Part shown: positions 15,079 to 61,019 of the stretch, piece by piece
Numbering within the stretch: the first letter of the stretch is position 1
Layout of the letters: every line of letters begins with the position of its first letter
Assembly (NCBI RefSeq): GCF_051903065.1
Contig: NZ_CP178438.1
Length of the DNA: 64,000 bases
Source of the DNA: Escherichia coli
GTDB taxonomy: Bacteria; Pseudomonadota; Gammaproteobacteria; Enterobacterales; Enterobacteriaceae
Reading direction: 5' to 3' (one strand)
Program-made: the position numbers and the translations under genes
Notes under the pieces: model-generated
What the model saw: the letters and a program-made list of their open reading frames with translations, nothing else
Told to the model about the DNA's origin: nothing
The model's database searches: none

Positions 15079-15323
15079 GATTATCCCTTATATTTCATAC
15101 TGCGATTATTTCAATTTCAGTATACTAATGAAATGATGCCAGACTGTTTCTTAGCGCAAAAACTGCCAGATTTGGTAGGACCAAAATTTATCCACAAAGT
15201 AGTTTTGCATAACAGTTAATTGATAATAAGTAAATGCAACACGAATATATTTTCGCACAGCGTATAGCTTATGTTTATAAAAAAATGGCTGATCTTATTT
15301 CCAGTAAAAGTTATATTTAACTT

Positions 15324-15429
15324 ACTGAGAGCACAAAGTTTCCCGTGCCAACAGGGAGTGTTATAACGGTTTATTAGTCTGGAGACGGCAGACTATCCTC
15401 TTCCCGGTCCCCTATGCCGGGTTTTTTTT
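15324..15429 (+). ncRNA. gadY: GadY small RNA
   Basis: Sequence ACTGAGAGCACAAAGTTTCCCGTGCCAACAGGGAG...CCCGGTCCCCTATGCCGGGTTTTTTTT matches my recollection of GadY; intrinsic terminator at the 3' end; -10-like TATATT just upstream; opposite strand abutting the gadX stop. Confidence 0.75.
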
Positions 15430-15445
15430 ATGTCTGAGTAAAACT

Positions 15446-16639: not shown

Positions 16640-18040
16640 TCAGGTGTGTTTAAAGCTGTTCTGCTGGGCAATACCCTGCAGTTTCGGGTGATCGCTGAGA
16701 TATTTCAGGGAGGCTTTGTAGTCTTCCAGCAACAGTTCAGCAAAGTCCATTTCGAAGCCGCGACGACACATAATGCGCATCACCACGATGTCGGTGGCTT
16801 CACCGCCGAGAGTGAAGGCCGGAACCTGCCAGCCGCGCAGACGCAGACGTTCAGAGAGGTCGTACAGGGTGTATCCCGGATCTTCACCATCTTTCAGTTT
16901 GAAGCAAACTGCCGGGATGCCTTCGTCCGGGCGACCCGTACAGATGAACTCATACGGCCCCAGTTTGGCGATTTCATCCGCCAGATAAGCGGCAACCTGG
17001 TAAGAGGCGTTCTGTACTTTGGTATAGCCTTCACGACCGAGGCGCAGGAATTCATAGTACTGTGCAATTACCTGACCCGCCGGGCGGGAGAAGTTGATGG
17101 CAAAAGTACCAATCTGACCCCCCAGGTAGTCAACGTTGAACACCAGTTCCTGCGGCAGCGCTTCTTCGTCACGCCAGATAACCCAGCCGCAGCCCAGCGG
17201 AGCCAGACCGAATTTATGGCCTGAAGCACTGATCGATTTCACACGCGGCAGGCGGAAGTCCCAGACGATATCCGGGGCGACGAACGGTGCCAGAAAGCCA
17301 CCGCTGGCGGCGTCGATGTGCATGTCGATGTCGATACCGGTGTCGGCCTGGAATTTATCCAGTGCATCGTGCAGCGGTTGCGGGAACTCATAGTTACCGG
17401 TGTAGGTCACGCCGAAAGTCGGCACCACGCCGATGGTGTTTTCGTCGCAGGCTTCAATCATGCGTTTCGGGTCCATAAACAACTGACCGGGGCGCATAGG
17501 GATCTCACGCAGCTCCACATCCCAGTAGCGGGCGAATTTATGCCAGCAGATTTGTACCGGACCGCACACCAGGTTTGGTTTATCCGTTGGTTTGCCTGCA
17601 GCTTCCATACGCTTGCGCCAACGCCATTTCATCGCCATCCCGCCGAGCATACAGGCCTCGGAAGAACCAATGGTGTTGGTGCCAACGGCCTGACCATTTT
17701 TCGGCGCAGGCGCATGCCACAGATCGGCAACCATATTTACGCAACGCAGGTCGATGGCTGCGGATTGCGGATATTCTTCTTTGTCGATCCAGTTTTTATT
17801 GATCGACAAATCCATCAATTTATGGACGTTTTCGTCGTCCCAGGTCTGGCAGAAAGTGGCCAGGTTCTGACGAGCGTTGCCATCAAGATATAATTCATCA
17901 TTGATAATCTGGAATGCGACATCATCGCGCATTTCGTGCAGCGGAAATCGTTTTGACTCCGCGATAGTAGAAATGGCCTTTGCGCCAAAACGTGAATCGA
18001 GTAGTTCTGAGCGGAAATCCGTTAACAGCTTCTGGTCCAT
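16640..18040 (-). CDS. gadA: Glutamate decarboxylase alpha (PLP-dependent)
   Basis: 466 aa from [19 protein letters not shown]; called gadA rather than gadB because of gadX linkage. Confidence 0.9.
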
Positions 18041-18119
18041 TTCGAACTCCTTAAATTTATTTGAAGGCAATAAAAAAGTAGGATTTATCCGCAATGGAAG
18101 CAAGGCATTACAGGCTTAA

Positions 18120-18139
18120 TTTAAATAACAAAATCCTAA
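18120..18139 (-). promoter_or_regulatory. GAD box (GadX/GadW/GadE binding site) upstream of gadA
   Basis: Reverse complement reads TTAGGATTTTGTTATTTAAA, the conserved 20-bp GAD box, about 90 bp upstream of the gadA ATG. Confidence 0.6.
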
Positions 18140-18250
18140 GCAGAAAAACGACTTTTTATAATATAAACATTTAACATGATAATATTAAAAACAGACTTTA
18201 TTATCATAATAAAAATCGCCCAAACATTCCTGTTCGGGCGATCAAATTAA

Positions 18251-19648
18251 TTATTGTTTATCCTGCATATACGGCGTGTACACCCCGTTCAGACTGTGCA
18301 GGAAAGCTACGATATCATCCACATCCTCCTGCGGCAGCTCTTTGCCTACCTGATAGCGCAACATCAGCTTCACCGCCCCGTCCAGCGTCGGCACGTCACC
18401 GCGATGGAAGTACGGTGCCGTTAAAGCAACGTTACGTAAACCGGGTACTTTCTGACGCAATTTATCACGCTCTTCTTTAGTAACATTCATACGACCAATA
18501 TCCGCCGCCGTAATTTCACCAAAGTTAAAGTCTTTTTTCAGCCCCAACGGTTCGAAGGAACGTCCGCCGAGAATAATACCACCATGACAAGTTGCACATT
18601 TATTATCTTTAAATAATTGATAGCCTTTTTTCTGTTGCGCCGTCAGCGCATTCTCATCTCCACGCAACCATTTATCAAATGGGGAATCCGGCGTAATTAA
18701 TGTTTTCTCAAATTCAGCAATGGCATCAGTAATATTTTCGCCACTGAAACCTTGCGGATAGACTTCGAGGAACTGCGCTTTAAGCCGCGGATCTTTTTCC
18801 AGCTTGGCAATAATTTCGTCCCAGGATTTTGACGCCATTTCAATCGGGTTCAACGGCGGTCCACCAGCCTGATCCTGCAATGTTGCCGCACGGCCATCCC
18901 AGAACTGCTCAACGTTAAATACTGAGTTAAATACCGTCGGCGCGTTAATCGGCCCAACTGCGCCACCAACACCAATTGATGTTTTTCTGCCATCGACGCC
19001 CCCCGCATTCAACGCATGGCAATGAGCGCATGAAATGGTGCTATCAGCCGATAAACGGGGATCGTGATACAGCGCAAAGCCCAACGCCACTTTTTGCGCA
19101 TCGGTAGGCAGTTTTTGCGGGATGGGCTGCACCGGTTCATTGCGATGCTCCGGAGCAGTATCATTGCTGGCGTAATATTCCGCGCGCTGTTTTGCAATCC
19201 AGGCCAGTATTTCCGCCCGCTCTTCATCACTCACCTTACCCGCCCAGTGAAGCGCGGTATAACGCGTTGGTGGCATAGTTTCATACTGCATCACCCATTC
19301 AATCTTATTCAGATCGCTTTGCGAAACGGGTTTATCAGCCAGCAGTGCCGCACGCACGGCCTCGAGGTTAAAAGATTTATATCCAAGCTTAATGTCGTAA
19401 TCCATCAACTGTTTCGCGCCAGGAATATAATAATAGGCGGGTAATTCTGCCGAAGGCGTGTGGCAATAGTCGCATCCTTTTTCGCGGAGAAAGCCTAAAA
19501 CCTTATTATTTTCACTGACAGCAGATGCCTGAACATCGGCCTGTTTACTGCGTTTATTATCGTGGTACCACACATAACCAGATAACCCTAAATAGCAAAT
19601 CGCGACGCCAGCCAGGCCGATCGCGGTAATACGTGAGACCATTTTCAT
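18251..19648 (-). CDS. yhjA: Cytochrome c peroxidase (di/tri-heme), YhjA/Ccp
   Basis: 465 aa; several CxxCH heme-binding motifs (CDYCH, CAHCH, CATCH); N-terminal membrane anchor. Confidence 0.9.
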   Translation of the reverse strand: MKMVSRITAIGLAGVAICYLGLSGYVWYHDNKRSKQADVQASAVSENNKVLGFLREKGCDYCHTPSAELPAYYYIPGAKQLMDYDIKLGYKSFNLEAVRAALLADKPVSQSDLNKIEWVMQYETMPPTRYTALHWAGKVSDEERAEILAWIAKQRAEYYASNDTAPEHRNEPVQPIPQKLPTDAQKVALGFALYHDPRLSADSTISCAHCHALNAGGVDGRKTSIGVGGAVGPINAPTVFNSVFNVEQFWDGRAATLQDQAGGPPLNPIEMASKSWDEIIAKLEKDPRLKAQFLEVYPQGFSGENITDAIAEFEKTLITPDSPFDKWLRGDENALTAQQKKGYQLFKDNKCATCHGGIILGGRSFEPLGLKKDFNFGEITAADIGRMNVTKEERDKLRQKVPGLRNVALTAPYFHRGDVPTLDGAVKLMLRYQVGKELPQEDVDDIVAFLHSLNGVYTPYMQDKQ

Positions 19649-19755
19649 TATTCTTCCCTCACGGTGGTGAGTTATTGTGACCCAGAAAATTTTCCAGAAT
19701 GCTGCAAACGTCTCTGCGAGACAAAGCCATCATAAAAAACAGGGAGATACGCTTT

Positions 19756-19769
19756 TTGATAGGAATCAA
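19756..19769. promoter_or_regulatory. FNR-box-like site TTGATaggaATCAA upstream of yhjA
   Basis: Perfect match to the FNR consensus TTGAT-N4-ATCAA about 110 bp upstream of the yhjA start. Confidence 0.55.
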
Positions 19770-20021
19770 TCAATTACATGAATATAAACTATCAATAAGA
19801 TAGCCTGTGCCTATTACCCAGATCAGGAATGGCATATCATGATTGCGGCGAGAGCAGGATTGAATGTTCTGAAAATGAAAAACAACACGAAATCTGTATT
19901 TTTATAAATTCCATTGATATTAGTGCGTTATATTTTTTGACAGGTTAATAAACGTGATCCACCGCACGCTTTGTCGCCCACCAGGCGGAGCGAATGACTA
20001 CCCTTAAAGAAAAGCCGATAA

Positions 20022-21701
<1,680 letters not shown>

Positions 21702-22527: not shown

Positions 22528-23584
22528 GGCTTTGTTGAATAAATCAGATTTCGGGTAAGTCTCCCCCGTAGCGGGTTGTGTTTTCAGGCAATACGCACGC
22601 TTTCAGGCATACCTGCTTTCGTCATTTTGTTCAGCGCTCGTACCAGGGCCATAGCCTCTGCAACCTGACCATCGTAGTCACGCAGTGTCAGTGAACCCCC
22701 GAACAGCTGTTTTACCCGGTACATCGCCGTTTCCGCTATCGAGCGACGGTTGTAATCTGTTGTCCATTTCCACCGCGCATTACTCCCGGTCATTCGCTGA
22801 TTAGCCACTGCACGGTTACGGTCTGCATATTCACCGGGCCAGTAACCCGCACCTTTTCGGGGAGGGATAAGCGCGCTGATTTTCTTACGCCGCAGTTCAT
22901 CGTGACATAGCCGGGTATCGTAAGCGCCATCGGCGGCGGCTGACCTGATTTTCCGGTGGGTTTGCCGGATTAACCCGGGGAAGGCCTCTGAGTCCGTAAC
23001 GTTGTTCAGCGACAGGTCAGCGCAGATGATTTCATGTGTTTTACTGTCAACGGCGAGATGCAGCTTACGCCAGATACGGCGGCGTTCCTGGCCATGCTTT
23101 TTGACTTTCCACTCGCCTTCACCGAAGACCTTCAGCCCGGTGGAATCAATTACCAGGTGTGCGATTTCACCCCGGGTGGGCGTTTTGAAACTGACATTAA
23201 CCGACTTTGCCCGCCTGCTGACACAGCTGTAATCCGGGCAGCGTAGCGGAACGTTCATCAGAGAAAAAATGGAATCAATAAAGCCCTGCGCAGCGCGCAG
23301 GGTCAGCCTGAATACGCGTTTAATGACCAGCACAGTCGTGATGGCAAGGTCAGAATAGCGCTGAGGTCTGCCTCGTGAAGAAGGTGTTGCTGACTCATAC
23401 CAGGCCTGAATAGCTTCATCATCCAGCCAGAAAGTTATGGAGCCACGGTTGATGAGGGCTTTATTGTAGGTGGGCCAGTTGGTGATTTTGAACTTTTGCT
23501 TTGCCACGGAACGGTCTGCGTTGTCGGGAAGATACGTGATCTGATCCTTCAACTCAGCAAAAGTTCGATTTATTCAACAAAGCC
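22528..23584 (-). mobile_element. IS903-group (IS5 family) insertion sequence, complete, 1057 bp
   Basis: Terminal 18-bp inverted repeats GGCTTTGTTGAATAAATC at both ends; single transposase ORF; 9-bp direct duplication of the target; length and IR match my recollection of IS903/IS102. Confidence 0.85.
22584..23507 (-). CDS. IS903-type DDE transposase
   Basis: 307 aa from a GTG start (VAKQKFKITNW...); the track's 322-aa version starts at an upstream TTG; exact start uncertain. Confidence 0.8.
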   Translation of the reverse strand: MAKQKFKITNWPTYNKALINRGSITFWLDDEAIQAWYESATPSSRGRPQRYSDLAITTVLVIKRVFRLTLRAAQGFIDSIFSLMNVPLRCPDYSCVSRRAKSVNVSFKTPTRGEIAHLVIDSTGLKVFGEGEWKVKKHGQERRRIWRKLHLAVDSKTHEIICADLSLNNVTDSEAFPGLIRQTHRKIRSAAADGAYDTRLCHDELRRKKISALIPPRKGAGYWPGEYADRNRAVANQRMTGSNARWKWTTDYNRRSIAETAMYRVKQLFGGSLTLRDYDGQVAEAMALVRALNKMTKAGMPESVRIA

Positions 23585-23593
23585 TGTCGAGGG
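23585..23593. repeat. Target-site duplication TGTCGAGGG (right flank of IS)
   Basis: Perfect copy of the 9-mer at 22519-22527. Confidence 0.8.
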
Positions 23594-23939
23594 CACTATT
23601 TAAAACAATTTTGAGGATTTCCTTATATTGGTGGTTAGTACGCATGCAATTAAAAATGAAATTCCGCGACCACAAGCCAAAATAACAAATGGCAATGAGA
23701 CAAAAATAAGCACAAATAGCCAATACGTCCTCTATTCACTTTAAAGGGAATCGCTGAAAAATACGCTCTGTTTAAGGGGATTTACCTTTCTCAGAAAGCT
23801 ATTCCGCCCTTTTCCTGCTGAGAAATCGCCACATTCGTCATGACAACATTGTGAAACCCGGCATTAGATGTTAGAAAAAACAATAAACAATGCGATATGC
23901 GCGTTACTGTTTCGCTGTGAACAACAATCGGTCAAAGAA

Positions 23940-51662: not shown

Positions 51663-51728
51663 GTTTGGATGCAAGAATGGCCCCCGTGATGTTGTCAGGT
51701 GCATACCTGCAACGTGCGGGGGTTTTCT
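51663..51728 (+). ncRNA. rdlD: Rdl antisense RNA, copy 1 (approximate)
   Basis: Opposite strand about 50 nt upstream of the ldr ATG; sigma70-like promoter TTGTAA-17-TATTCT at 51628-51656; ends in hairpin CCCCCG...CGGGGG plus TTTT at 51723-51726. Boundaries inferred. Confidence 0.5.
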
Positions 51729-51908
51729 CTCTCCAGCAACCAATACCACCAGGGATTAAGCCCCCGCAACATTGCGCCTCACCGGAACCCTTCCGGCTTG
51801 CCGCTGATTCTACGACTGTTTTTCTGTTCCGGAATCCGTCACGTCTTCACTCTGTGCTGCGCATTCCGCAGAATATTATCCGCTTGCAACCGTTGCATTT
51901 TTCTTACG

Positions 51909-51939
51909 AAAAAGGCCGCAGAGTTTCACCCCTGCGGCC
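51909..51939 (-). terminator. Rho-independent terminator of ldr copy 2
   Basis: Same hairpin plus T-run as copy 1. Confidence 0.6.
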
Positions 51940-51989
51940 TGGTCCGGGCGCAAATTGCCATTACGGCAGCCTGACGCCCGCATGACACG

Positions 51990-52097
51990 TTACTTCCGCT
52001 TGTTCAGCCAGTTCACGATCATACTGGCAAGAATGTCATCAATGACCGGAGACGCTAAATCATGCCAGAAGGCCATGCCCAGCTCTGCGAGCGTCAT
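51990..52097 (-). CDS. Ldr-family toxin peptide, copy 2 (variant, 35 aa)
   Basis: MTLAELGMAFWHDLASPVIDDILASMIVNWLNKRK; differs from copies 1 and 3 at three residues (A to S, A to D, G to D) from four clustered nucleotide changes. Confidence 0.75.
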   Translation of the reverse strand: MTLAELGMAFWHDLASPVIDDILASMIVNWLNKRK

Positions 52098-52145
52098 ATA
52101 GCCGCCTGTGTTGTAATGACAACGTTTCGCGGCTATTCTTGTATT

Positions 52146-52211
52146 GTTTGGATGCAAGAATGGCCCCCGTGATGTTGTCAGGTGCATACCTGCAACGTGC
52201 GGGGGTTTTCT
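52146..52211 (+). ncRNA. Rdl antisense RNA, copy 2 (approximate)
   Basis: Same promoter and terminator-like hairpin as copy 1, shifted by one repeat unit. Confidence 0.45.
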
Positions 52212-52391
52212 CTCTCCAGCAACCAATGCCACCAGGGATTAAGCCCCCGCAACATTGCGCCTCACCGGAATCCTTCCGGCTTGACGCTGATTCTACGACT
52301 GTTTTTCTGTTCCGGAATCCGTCACGTCTTCACTCTGTGCTGCGCATTCCGCAGAATATTATCCGCTTGCAACCGTTGCATTTTTCTTACG

Positions 52392-52422
52392 AAAAAGGCC
52401 GCAGAGTTTCACCCCTGCGGCC
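52392..52422 (-). terminator. Rho-independent terminator of ldr copy 3
   Basis: Same hairpin plus T-run. Confidence 0.6.
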
Positions 52423-52472
52423 TGGTCCGGGCGCAAATTGCCATTACGGCAGCCTGACGCCCGCATGACACG

Positions 52473-52580
52473 TTACTTCCGCTTGTTCAGCCAGTTCACG
52501 ATCATACTGGCAAGAATACCAGCAATGACCGGAGCCGCTAAATCATGCCAGAAGGCCATGCCCAGCTCTGCGAGCGTCAT
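52473..52580 (-). CDS. Ldr-family toxin peptide, copy 3 (35 aa)
   Basis: Peptide identical to copy 1; the 5'-UTR region differs from copies 1 and 2. Confidence 0.8.
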   Translation of the reverse strand: MTLAELGMAFWHDLAAPVIAGILASMIVNWLNKRK

Positions 52581-52628
52581 ATAGCCGCCTGTGTTGTAAT
52601 GGCAACGTTTCGCGGCTATTCTTGAGTG

Positions 52629-52694
52629 GTCTAGGTTCAAGATTAGCCCCCGTGGTGTTGTCAGGTGCATACCTGCAACGTGCGGGGGTTTTCT
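52629..52694 (+). ncRNA. Rdl antisense RNA, copy 3 (approximate, divergent 5' part)
   Basis: Promoter and 3' hairpin conserved, but the first ~25 nt (gagtggtctaggttcaagattagccc) differ from copies 1 and 2 (gtattgtttggatgcaagaatggccc). Confidence 0.45.
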
Positions 52695-58454: not shown

Positions 58455-58565
58455 TGCCGGATGCGGCGTTAACGCCTTATCCGGCCTACAAAATCGTGCA
58501 AACTCAATACATTGCAGAATTTTCGTAGGCCTGATAAGCGGAGCGCATCAGGCAGTTTTGCCTTT
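58455..58565. repeat. REP/BIME element in the dppA-dppB intergenic region
   Basis: Two inverted REP units (TGCCGGATGCGGCGTTAACGCCTTATCCGGCCTAC ... GTAGGCCTGATAAGCGGAGCGCATCAGGCAG). Confidence 0.65.
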
Positions 58566-60765: not shown

Positions 60766-60853
60766 TAGGTCGAATAAGGCGTTCACGCCGCATCCGACAA
60801 TAAGTGCGGTGCCGTTGCCTGATGCGACGCTGACGCGTCTTATCAGGCCTACG
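60766..60853. repeat. REP/BIME element
   Basis: REP-like palindromes (CGAATAAGGCGTTCACGCCGCATCCGACA ... CGTCTTATCAGGCCTAC). Confidence 0.6.

Positions 60854-60942: not shown

Positions 60943-61019
<77 letters not shown>

Follow-up and report, generated by a model that had tools for sequence, protein, structure and literature searches.

The DNA analysed here is a stretch of 64,000 nucleotides (64 kb) of Escherichia coli contig NZ_CP178438.1, hereafter the window, in which gadW, gadX, gadA, ccp (= yhjA), treF, and yhjB follow one another in the order annotated in an identical record and in K-12 MG1655. Over the segment under study (17900-20100), three RefSeq E. coli genomes matched the window at 100% identity; the segment occurred in 5,412 of 5,426 complete genomes. 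The acid-resistance gene gadA (16640-18040, minus strand, ATG at 18040) encodes glutamate decarboxylase A, according to the RefSeq annotation of the identical record and a Pfam match to Pyridoxal_deC (E = 2.6e-111). Its neighbor ccp (18251-19648, minus strand, ATG at 19648) encodes a tri-haem quinol/cytochrome c peroxidase, as indicated by the list of open reading frames (ORFs), the annotation, and the Pfam domains Haem_bd, CCP_MauG, and Cytochrom_C. An earlier reading of these letters (the original prediction) had given both genes the same identities, and had placed a GAD box upstream of gadA and FNR half-sites upstream of yhjA, both as expected from the K-12 literature. The gene identities agreed with the annotation and Pfam, and the expectation agreed with the literature, in which the GAD box is described (PMC2887963, PMC4918353) and yhjA is a published FNR target. 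The host is a non-K-12 E. coli that carries a chu haem cluster in the leftmost part of the window. The locus very probably comprises two separate and already characterized activator-dependent promoters that flank ccp.

The region upstream of ccp contained the FNR site TTGATaggaATCAA (19756-19769), a perfect palindrome that matches 10 of the 10 specified bases of TTGAT-N4-ATCAA. The site reads TTGATAGGAATCAA, with both half-sites perfect, and is located 108-121 bp upstream of the ccp ATG (centre 114.5 bp), in agreement with the predicted distance of about 110 bp. A motif scan, which had been suggested together with the prediction, identified two perfect FNR sites in the window compared to 0.12 expected (two were reached in 1 of 100 shuffles), and nine sites with at most one mismatch compared to 2.56 expected (0 of 100 shuffles). 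The same scan showed that the GAD box is unique in the 64 kb. On the minus strand, the ccp promoter is arranged as ATAGgcacaggCTATcttattgATAGtttatatTCAT (19814-19778), 8 bp, TTGATTCCTATCAA (19769-19756), 21 bp, and the -10 element TATGAT (19734-19729), after which come a 74-nt leader, GAGGGAAG, and the ATG. TATGAT is invariant in divergent E. coli strains and is not accompanied by a recognizable -35 element. A transcription start is predicted at 19722, 7 nt after the -10 element. Between the centre of the FNR site and the first base of TATGAT there are 28.5 bp, which would put the centre at -40.5 from this start. This is within the range of -41.5 ± 4 in which the site is located in 19 of 23 FNR-activated promoters in K-12 (PMC3688515). 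Because of the -40.5 centre and the missing -35 element, the ccp promoter fits a class II FNR arrangement in which the perfect FNR site would replace the -35 element. As in the class II promoters of dmsA, narG, and nirB (-41.5), a perfect TTGAT-N4-ATCAA would stand in place of the -35 element with a -10 element downstream. The ccp promoter differs from these in its predicted centre of -40.5 rather than -41.5 and in the reported need for OxyR as a second, upstream activator.

The ccp leader (19640-19722, minus strand) contained two small hairpins, GTCTCgcaGAGAC, at the predicted 5' end and with variants in Citrobacter that look compensatory, and CTCACcaccGTGAG, which overlaps the Shine-Dalgarno sequence. 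Leader structure was dropped as a candidate feature because the 83-nt leader folded no better than shuffles (z = -1.3).

Directly upstream of the FNR site lies a 37-bp OxyR-type site, ATAGgcacaggCTATcttattgATAGtttatatTCAT (19778-19814, minus strand), with its centre at -74 from the predicted start. It matches 14 of 16 positions of ATAG-N7-CTAT-N7-ATAG-N7-CTAT, reading ATAG-N7-CTAT-N7-ATAG-N7-tCAT, and was the sole match in the window. The support for the site comes from its conservation in other genera, where it keeps register with the FNR site. This was examined at 41 loci from a scan for the Ccp protein with one genome per species. FNR sites with at most one mismatch were present upstream of ccp in Escherichia, Citrobacter, Providencia, Trabulsiella, Hafnia, Enterobacillus, Yersinia, and one Enterobacteriaceae metagenome-assembled genome, and versions with two mismatches occurred at the same offset in Pluralibacter, Entomohabitans, and Buttiauxella; no FNR site was found upstream of ccp in Saezia. 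Of the 31 loci with both motifs, 30 had the OxyR-like centre upstream of the FNR centre at a distance of exactly 33.5 bp. The single exception, Providencia burhodogranariea (44.5 bp), has one helical turn (+11 bp) more. The distance between the FNR site and the ATG, in contrast, varied between 86.5 and 226.5 bp in these loci. When 16 representatives were aligned without gaps, information content per column peaked on ATAG, CTAT, ATAG, TTGAT, and ATCAA, and a -10-like hexamer occurred at the same offset from the FNR site, or 1 bp later, in most other genera. The surroundings of the gene were less stable, as treF is the divergent neighbor of ccp in Escherichia and Citrobacter only, and gadA lies downstream in Escherichia only. 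The OxyR-FNR module thus stays with ccp while the neighbors change, which indicates that it belongs to ccp.

Textbook OxyR promoters have OxyR abutting the -35 element and in direct contact with RNA polymerase. The ccp promoter shares with katG, ahpC, dps, and oxyS the four ATAG-type elements at 10-bp spacing, but differs in that an FNR dimer would lie between OxyR (-74) and the polymerase. The positions -40.5 and -74 presumably match the mapped start of K-12 yhjA.

Published work, as relayed in later papers, is consistent with this layout. Both OxyR and, under anaerobiosis, FNR were reported to activate yhjA (Partridge 2007, via PMC4207228, PMC10301912, PMC2690998), and both regulators are reported to be required. 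The gene ccp is listed in the OxyR regulon (PMC8115020), and Ccp allows hydrogen peroxide (H2O2) to serve as terminal acceptor of the respiratory chain under hypoxia (Khademian & Imlay 2017, via PMC8115020, PMC12051229). The promoter, the gene, and its neighbors in this strain are the same as those of the FNR- and OxyR-regulated K-12 yhjA. In the proposed mechanism, [4Fe-4S]-FNR, formed when oxygen is absent, would activate ccp as a class II regulator from -40.5, and oxidized OxyR on its four-element site would supply the peroxide input. The gene would be transcribed only when FNR (no oxygen) and oxidized OxyR (peroxide) are both bound. Such two-input control fits the role of the enzyme in using H2O2 as a respiratory acceptor without O2. 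The original prediction had described the FNR site as consistent with anaerobic induction. This holds to the extent that yhjA is a published FNR target, but it is incomplete, as an OxyR site abuts the FNR site and, according to published work, both regulators are required. Similarly, the interval that had been proposed (18104-19800) contains both predicted motifs but cuts through the OxyR site of the same ccp promoter, which had been missed. The ccp promoter should accordingly be annotated as a probable two-input promoter (no oxygen and peroxide), and not merely as anaerobically induced.

Occupancy data from K-12 bear on whether FNR acts at this site at all. Myers 2013 (PMC3688515, Table S6) listed TTGATAGGAATCAA at yhjA/treF, with a PatSer score of 14.16, as a predicted FNR site without a peak in chromatin immunoprecipitation sequencing (ChIP-seq). 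The experiment was performed in anaerobic glucose medium without peroxide, and the site overlapped H-NS and IHF enrichment (PMC3688515). In this respect ccp is unlike the class II FNR promoters, as its consensus is perfect and yet unoccupied by ChIP-seq without peroxide. One explanation is that the palindrome is a silent consensus match that is permanently occluded by H-NS/IHF, and that OxyR alone drives ccp. Besides the missing peak under H-NS/IHF enrichment, this is favored by the absence of yhjA from the table of peaks unmasked in an hns/stpA mutant (PMC3688515), by the A+T content of the ccp-treF intergenic DNA (60%), and by an anaerobic induction without peroxide of only about 2-fold (Table S12 of PMC3688515; the direction of change was checked against dmsA, narG, and cyoA). 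However, an FNR site with at most one mismatch is kept at a fixed 33.5 bp from the OxyR site in eight genera, despite changing surroundings, leader length, and neighbors, and its distance to a -10-like hexamer is likewise fixed across these genera. Furthermore, an earlier and independent chromatin immunoprecipitation (ChIP) study found FNR bound in vivo at yhjA and treF (PMC2690998), FNR dependence has been published (PMC4207228, PMC10301912), and the ChIP-seq was run without H2O2, where OxyR is inactive. A permanently silent FNR site is therefore very unlikely. A requirement for both activators, on the other hand, predicts that the FNR site would be silent in ChIP-seq without peroxide.

A more specific model of the two-input promoter can be offered only tentatively, and its chances are judged to be rather poor. 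The OxyR and FNR sites, for a tetramer and a dimer respectively, might form a rigid and ancient composite element, with the spacing locked at 33.5 bp from centre to centre, that has travelled with ccp through at least eight Enterobacterales genera. The FNR site would remain unoccupied in anoxia until oxidized OxyR binds, so that OxyR might function more as a licensing or anti-silencing factor than as an activator of the classical kind, either by clearing H-NS/IHF or by recruiting FNR cooperatively. If true, such licensing would explain why a perfect consensus is "silent" in ChIP-seq. The fixed OxyR-FNR spacing and the paradox of a silent perfect site offer small, testable points on how two activators and nucleoid proteins interact.

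The coding sequence of gadE (8826-9353) contained ATGATAAAAATCAA (8895-8908), a site with one mismatch to the FNR consensus, 69 bp inside the gene. In K-12, this sequence at gadE is recorded as having an FNR ChIP-seq peak, unlike the perfect ccp site (Myers 2013, Table S6; PMC3688515).

On the other side of ccp, the GAD box TTAGGATTTTGTTATTTAAA (18120-18139, minus strand) was identical in 20 of 20 positions to the known element, 80-99 bp upstream of the A of the gadA ATG. Its centre at 89.5 bp agrees with the approximately 90 bp given in the original prediction. It was the sole match in the window even when up to three mismatches were allowed (0.01 expected). The minus-strand layout continues with a 16-bp spacer, the -35 element TTGCTT (18098-18103), a 17-bp spacer that holds GCGGATAAATCCTA, the -10 element TACTTT (18075-18080), the Shine-Dalgarno sequence AAGGAG (18047-18052), and the ATG. 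GCGGATAAATCCTA (18079-18092) is a putative repressing RcsB box that abuts or overlaps the -10 element; its exact limits were read from the sequence, and its GATAAATCCTA core is the same in gadB. Further upstream, a GadX/GadW-box-like sequence, AAGTCTGTTTTTAATATTAT (18179-18198, minus strand), matches 17 of 20 positions of the published motif AtGtcTGATtTttatattat (PMC4918353), and is tentatively assigned as such; it was the sole match in the window at three or fewer mismatches (0.02 expected).

The paralogous K-12 gadB promoter shares with gadA the GAD box (20 of 20), the -35 element TTGCTT, GATAAATCCTACTTTTTTA, the conserved -10 element, and the Shine-Dalgarno sequence, whereas the 16-bp spacer and all DNA upstream of the GAD box are unrelated. 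These islands are short, and megablast with the gadA promoter did not recover gadB as a second site per genome. The GAD box also matched at 20 of 20 positions in E. albertii, in which the spacer next to it has diverged, and at 19 of 20 in a cryptic Escherichia clade (Escherichia sp. MOD1). With a gadA start at 18067 or 18068, which was placed from the -10 element and the K-12 leader length, the GAD box would be centred at -62.5 or -61.5. In K-12, 16 bp separate the GAD box from the -35 element downstream, and the centre of the box is about 63 bp before the starts of gadA and gadB (Castanie-Cornet et al. 2010, PMC2887963), a position for a 20-bp GAD element that is also cited from PMC4918353, and the K-12 gadA/gadBC promoters have the same 20 bp, the same 16-bp distance to TTGCTT, the RcsB box, and the -10 element (PMC2887963). 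No substantive difference from the K-12 promoters was therefore observed; the host differs by the chu cluster in its acid fitness island and an IS5-family element nearby. The GAD box of the K-12 gadA and gadBC promoters is reportedly associated with Castanie-Cornet and Foster, 2001.

The regulator that binds the GAD box needs to be named more precisely than GadE. In K-12, the GadE-RcsB heterodimer binds it with an apparent dissociation constant of about 10 nM and protects -50 to -76, whereas GadE purified from rcsB-minus cells neither binds nor protects (PMC2887963). Binding and GadE-dependent activation are both lost upon a G-to-C change in the box, the left half of which resembles an RcsB half-site, and the RcsB box directly upstream of the -10 element has been described and footprinted (PMC2887963). 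This evidence consists of mutation, footprint, and in vivo fusion data on an identical K-12 sequence (PMC2887963). The motif derived from GadE ChIP-exo is also consistent with the GAD box (PMC4918353). Binding by GadE alone, as in earlier papers summarized in PMC2887963, or by GadX or GadW is highly improbable, even though gadA is activated by GadX as well and this region has GadX/W sites (PMC4918353), because GadE without RcsB fails to bind and the published GadX/W motif is different, with its best match 40 bp further upstream (18179-18198). The gadA promoter would thus be a weak sigma-70/sigma-S promoter that is activated by the GadE-RcsB heterodimer from the GAD box; the RcsB box at the -10 element may mediate repression at high RcsB, and GadX/W-type sites and H-NS-prone DNA further upstream may modulate it. 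The gadE ORF (8826-9353, plus strand) translates at full length and is annotated in the nearest record; rcsB lies beyond the window.

A GAD-box-like sequence, ATAAGATATTTTTATTTCAA (7306-7325, plus strand), occurred in the hdeA-hdeD intergenic region about 130 bp upstream of hdeD. At 15 of 20 positions in the window and 16 of 20 in the nearest genome, it was too weak to be called. Both hdeD and hdeAB are GadE targets.

The gene treF (20052-21701, plus strand; annotated as cytoplasmic trehalase) is the divergent neighbor of ccp, lies outside the OxyR-FNR module, and shares with ccp a 403-bp intergenic region. That the two sites serve treF, or both genes, rather than ccp is barely credible. In its favor, they do lie in the shared region, the palindrome is without orientation, treF was predicted by DISTILLER to be an FNR target with ChIP enrichment (PMC2690998), and Myers 2013 labels the site "yhjA/treF" (PMC3688515). 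Against it, ChIP is unable to tell apart two genes with a common intergenic region. From the end of the FNR site to the treF ATG there are 283 bp, which is far outside activating positions for treF (the lone sigma-70-like match on that side is at 19994-20022). In Providencia, Hafnia, Yersinia, Trabulsiella, and Enterobacillus, where treF is not the neighbor, the module is still located upstream of ccp. In addition, treF appears only in Table S11 of Myers 2013 (oxygen-dependent change solely in the hns/stpA mutant) and not among the fnr-dependent operons (PMC3688515).

Several points weigh against the assignment of the two flanking promoters to these activators. The OxyR match is not significant on its own, as 0.13 were expected per window and a match occurred in 12 of 100 shuffles. 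The positions -40.5 and -74 at ccp and -62.5 at gadA hang on predicted or literature start sites. The motif sequences, their positions and conservation, and the constant distance between the OxyR and FNR sites are direct observations, and the starts, the binding of the proteins, and the two-input logic are derived from sequence or literature. The site-level data on the yhjA promoter are second-hand. The in vivo FNR occupancy data are in conflict, being positive by ChIP (PMC2690998) and negative by ChIP-seq (PMC3688515). In addition, a generic promoter scan called neither the gadA nor the ccp promoter, which is expected for activator-dependent promoters; its matches in the A+T-rich spacer were no better than in shuffles (7 compared to 4.4 expected) and were not used as evidence. 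The GAD box and the FNR/OxyR control of ccp have already been described, and the finding of two promoters flanking ccp is in this sense an ordinary one. The additions made here are modest, namely the cross-genus invariance of the OxyR-FNR spacing and its link to the silent-site observation.

Within E. coli, both promoters were nearly invariant. The gadA promoter (160 bp) was found in 5,411 and the ccp promoter (182 bp) in 5,418 of the 5,426 complete genomes at a coverage of at least 80%, with none below 90% identity. In three of the lower-identity gadA promoters listed, the substitutions missed the GAD box, the -35 element, the RcsB box, and the -10 element. Likewise, in three of the lower-identity ccp promoters listed, no substitution affected the -10 element, the ATAG/CTAT elements, or the FNR half-sites, and one fell in an N7 spacer of the OxyR site. 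Compared with K-12, the ccp promoter showed no difference along the whole stretch that starts with the OxyR site, includes the FNR site, the -10 element, and the leader, and ends with the ATG; two single-nucleotide polymorphisms (19889 and 19895) were located further upstream, towards treF. The gadA and ccp promoters of this non-K-12 strain are thus expected to respond as in K-12.

The 210-bp spacer between ccp and gadA contained the ccp intrinsic terminator (18208-18243, minus strand), which was identified by a terminator scan as a 13-bp stem followed by a T run, 8 bp past the ccp stop codon. Two differences from K-12 were present in this spacer, one in the terminator loop and one just downstream of the terminator. 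Its A+T content (72%, compared to 49% for the window) fits the reported H-NS silencing. In a scan of the whole window, no Rfam family was matched between 18041 and 20051, which suggests that no known riboswitch or small RNA (sRNA) accounts for the intergenic regions.

The second perfect FNR consensus, and the only other one in the window, was TTGATaaaaATCAA (332-345) in the region between the divergent genes chuA and chuT (shuA-shuT), with its centre 114.5 bp before the chuT ATG (453). In Shigella dysenteriae, shuT transcription starts 42 nt before the ATG, and a Fur site spans +1 to +19 (PMC5458455). Applied to chuT, this mapping would put the transcription start at 411 and the Fur box at 411-429; the centre of the FNR site would then be at -72.5, near a class I position. 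FNR control of chuT would make sense because chuTWXY encodes anaerobic haem degradation (ChuW, ChuY). The literature searched contained no mention of FNR at chuT/shuT. TTGATaaaaATCAA was identical in four chu alleles, in which the whole 220 bp were 98% conserved, so that the footprint is weak. The chu/shu cluster (chuT, hutW/chuW, hutX, chuY, shuU, and an ATPase gene) extends from 1 to about 5660 and is located in the acid fitness island beside yhiD-hdeBA; the annotation of the nearest genome gives chuY as frameshifted.

Elsewhere in the window, Rfam matches above the gathering score comprised the sRNA GadY, which lies between gadW and gadX, ES205 immediately past the end of gadE, a tandem array of three rdlD antitoxin RNAs, whose partner Ldr toxin genes are annotated in the nearest genome, as well as ES036, naRNA4, and one tRNA. 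Taken together, these families were matched at 15321-15434, 9471-9542, 51663-52694, 58490-58532, 60768-60849, and 60946-61019.

The nearest genome, ECNB21-M121, had five mismatches to the window in the first 22.5 kb, after which colinearity was lost at an insertion sequence. The break at 22528 corresponds to an IS5-family element (approximately 22528-23730) that sits between yhjB and rcdB/yhjC and is not found at this place in ECNB21-M121. Its transposase ORF (22584-23552, minus strand) encodes 322 amino acids with the Pfam domains DDE_Tnp_1_5 and DDE_Tnp_1. ECNB21-M121 instead carries IS1397 between yhjD and yhjE.

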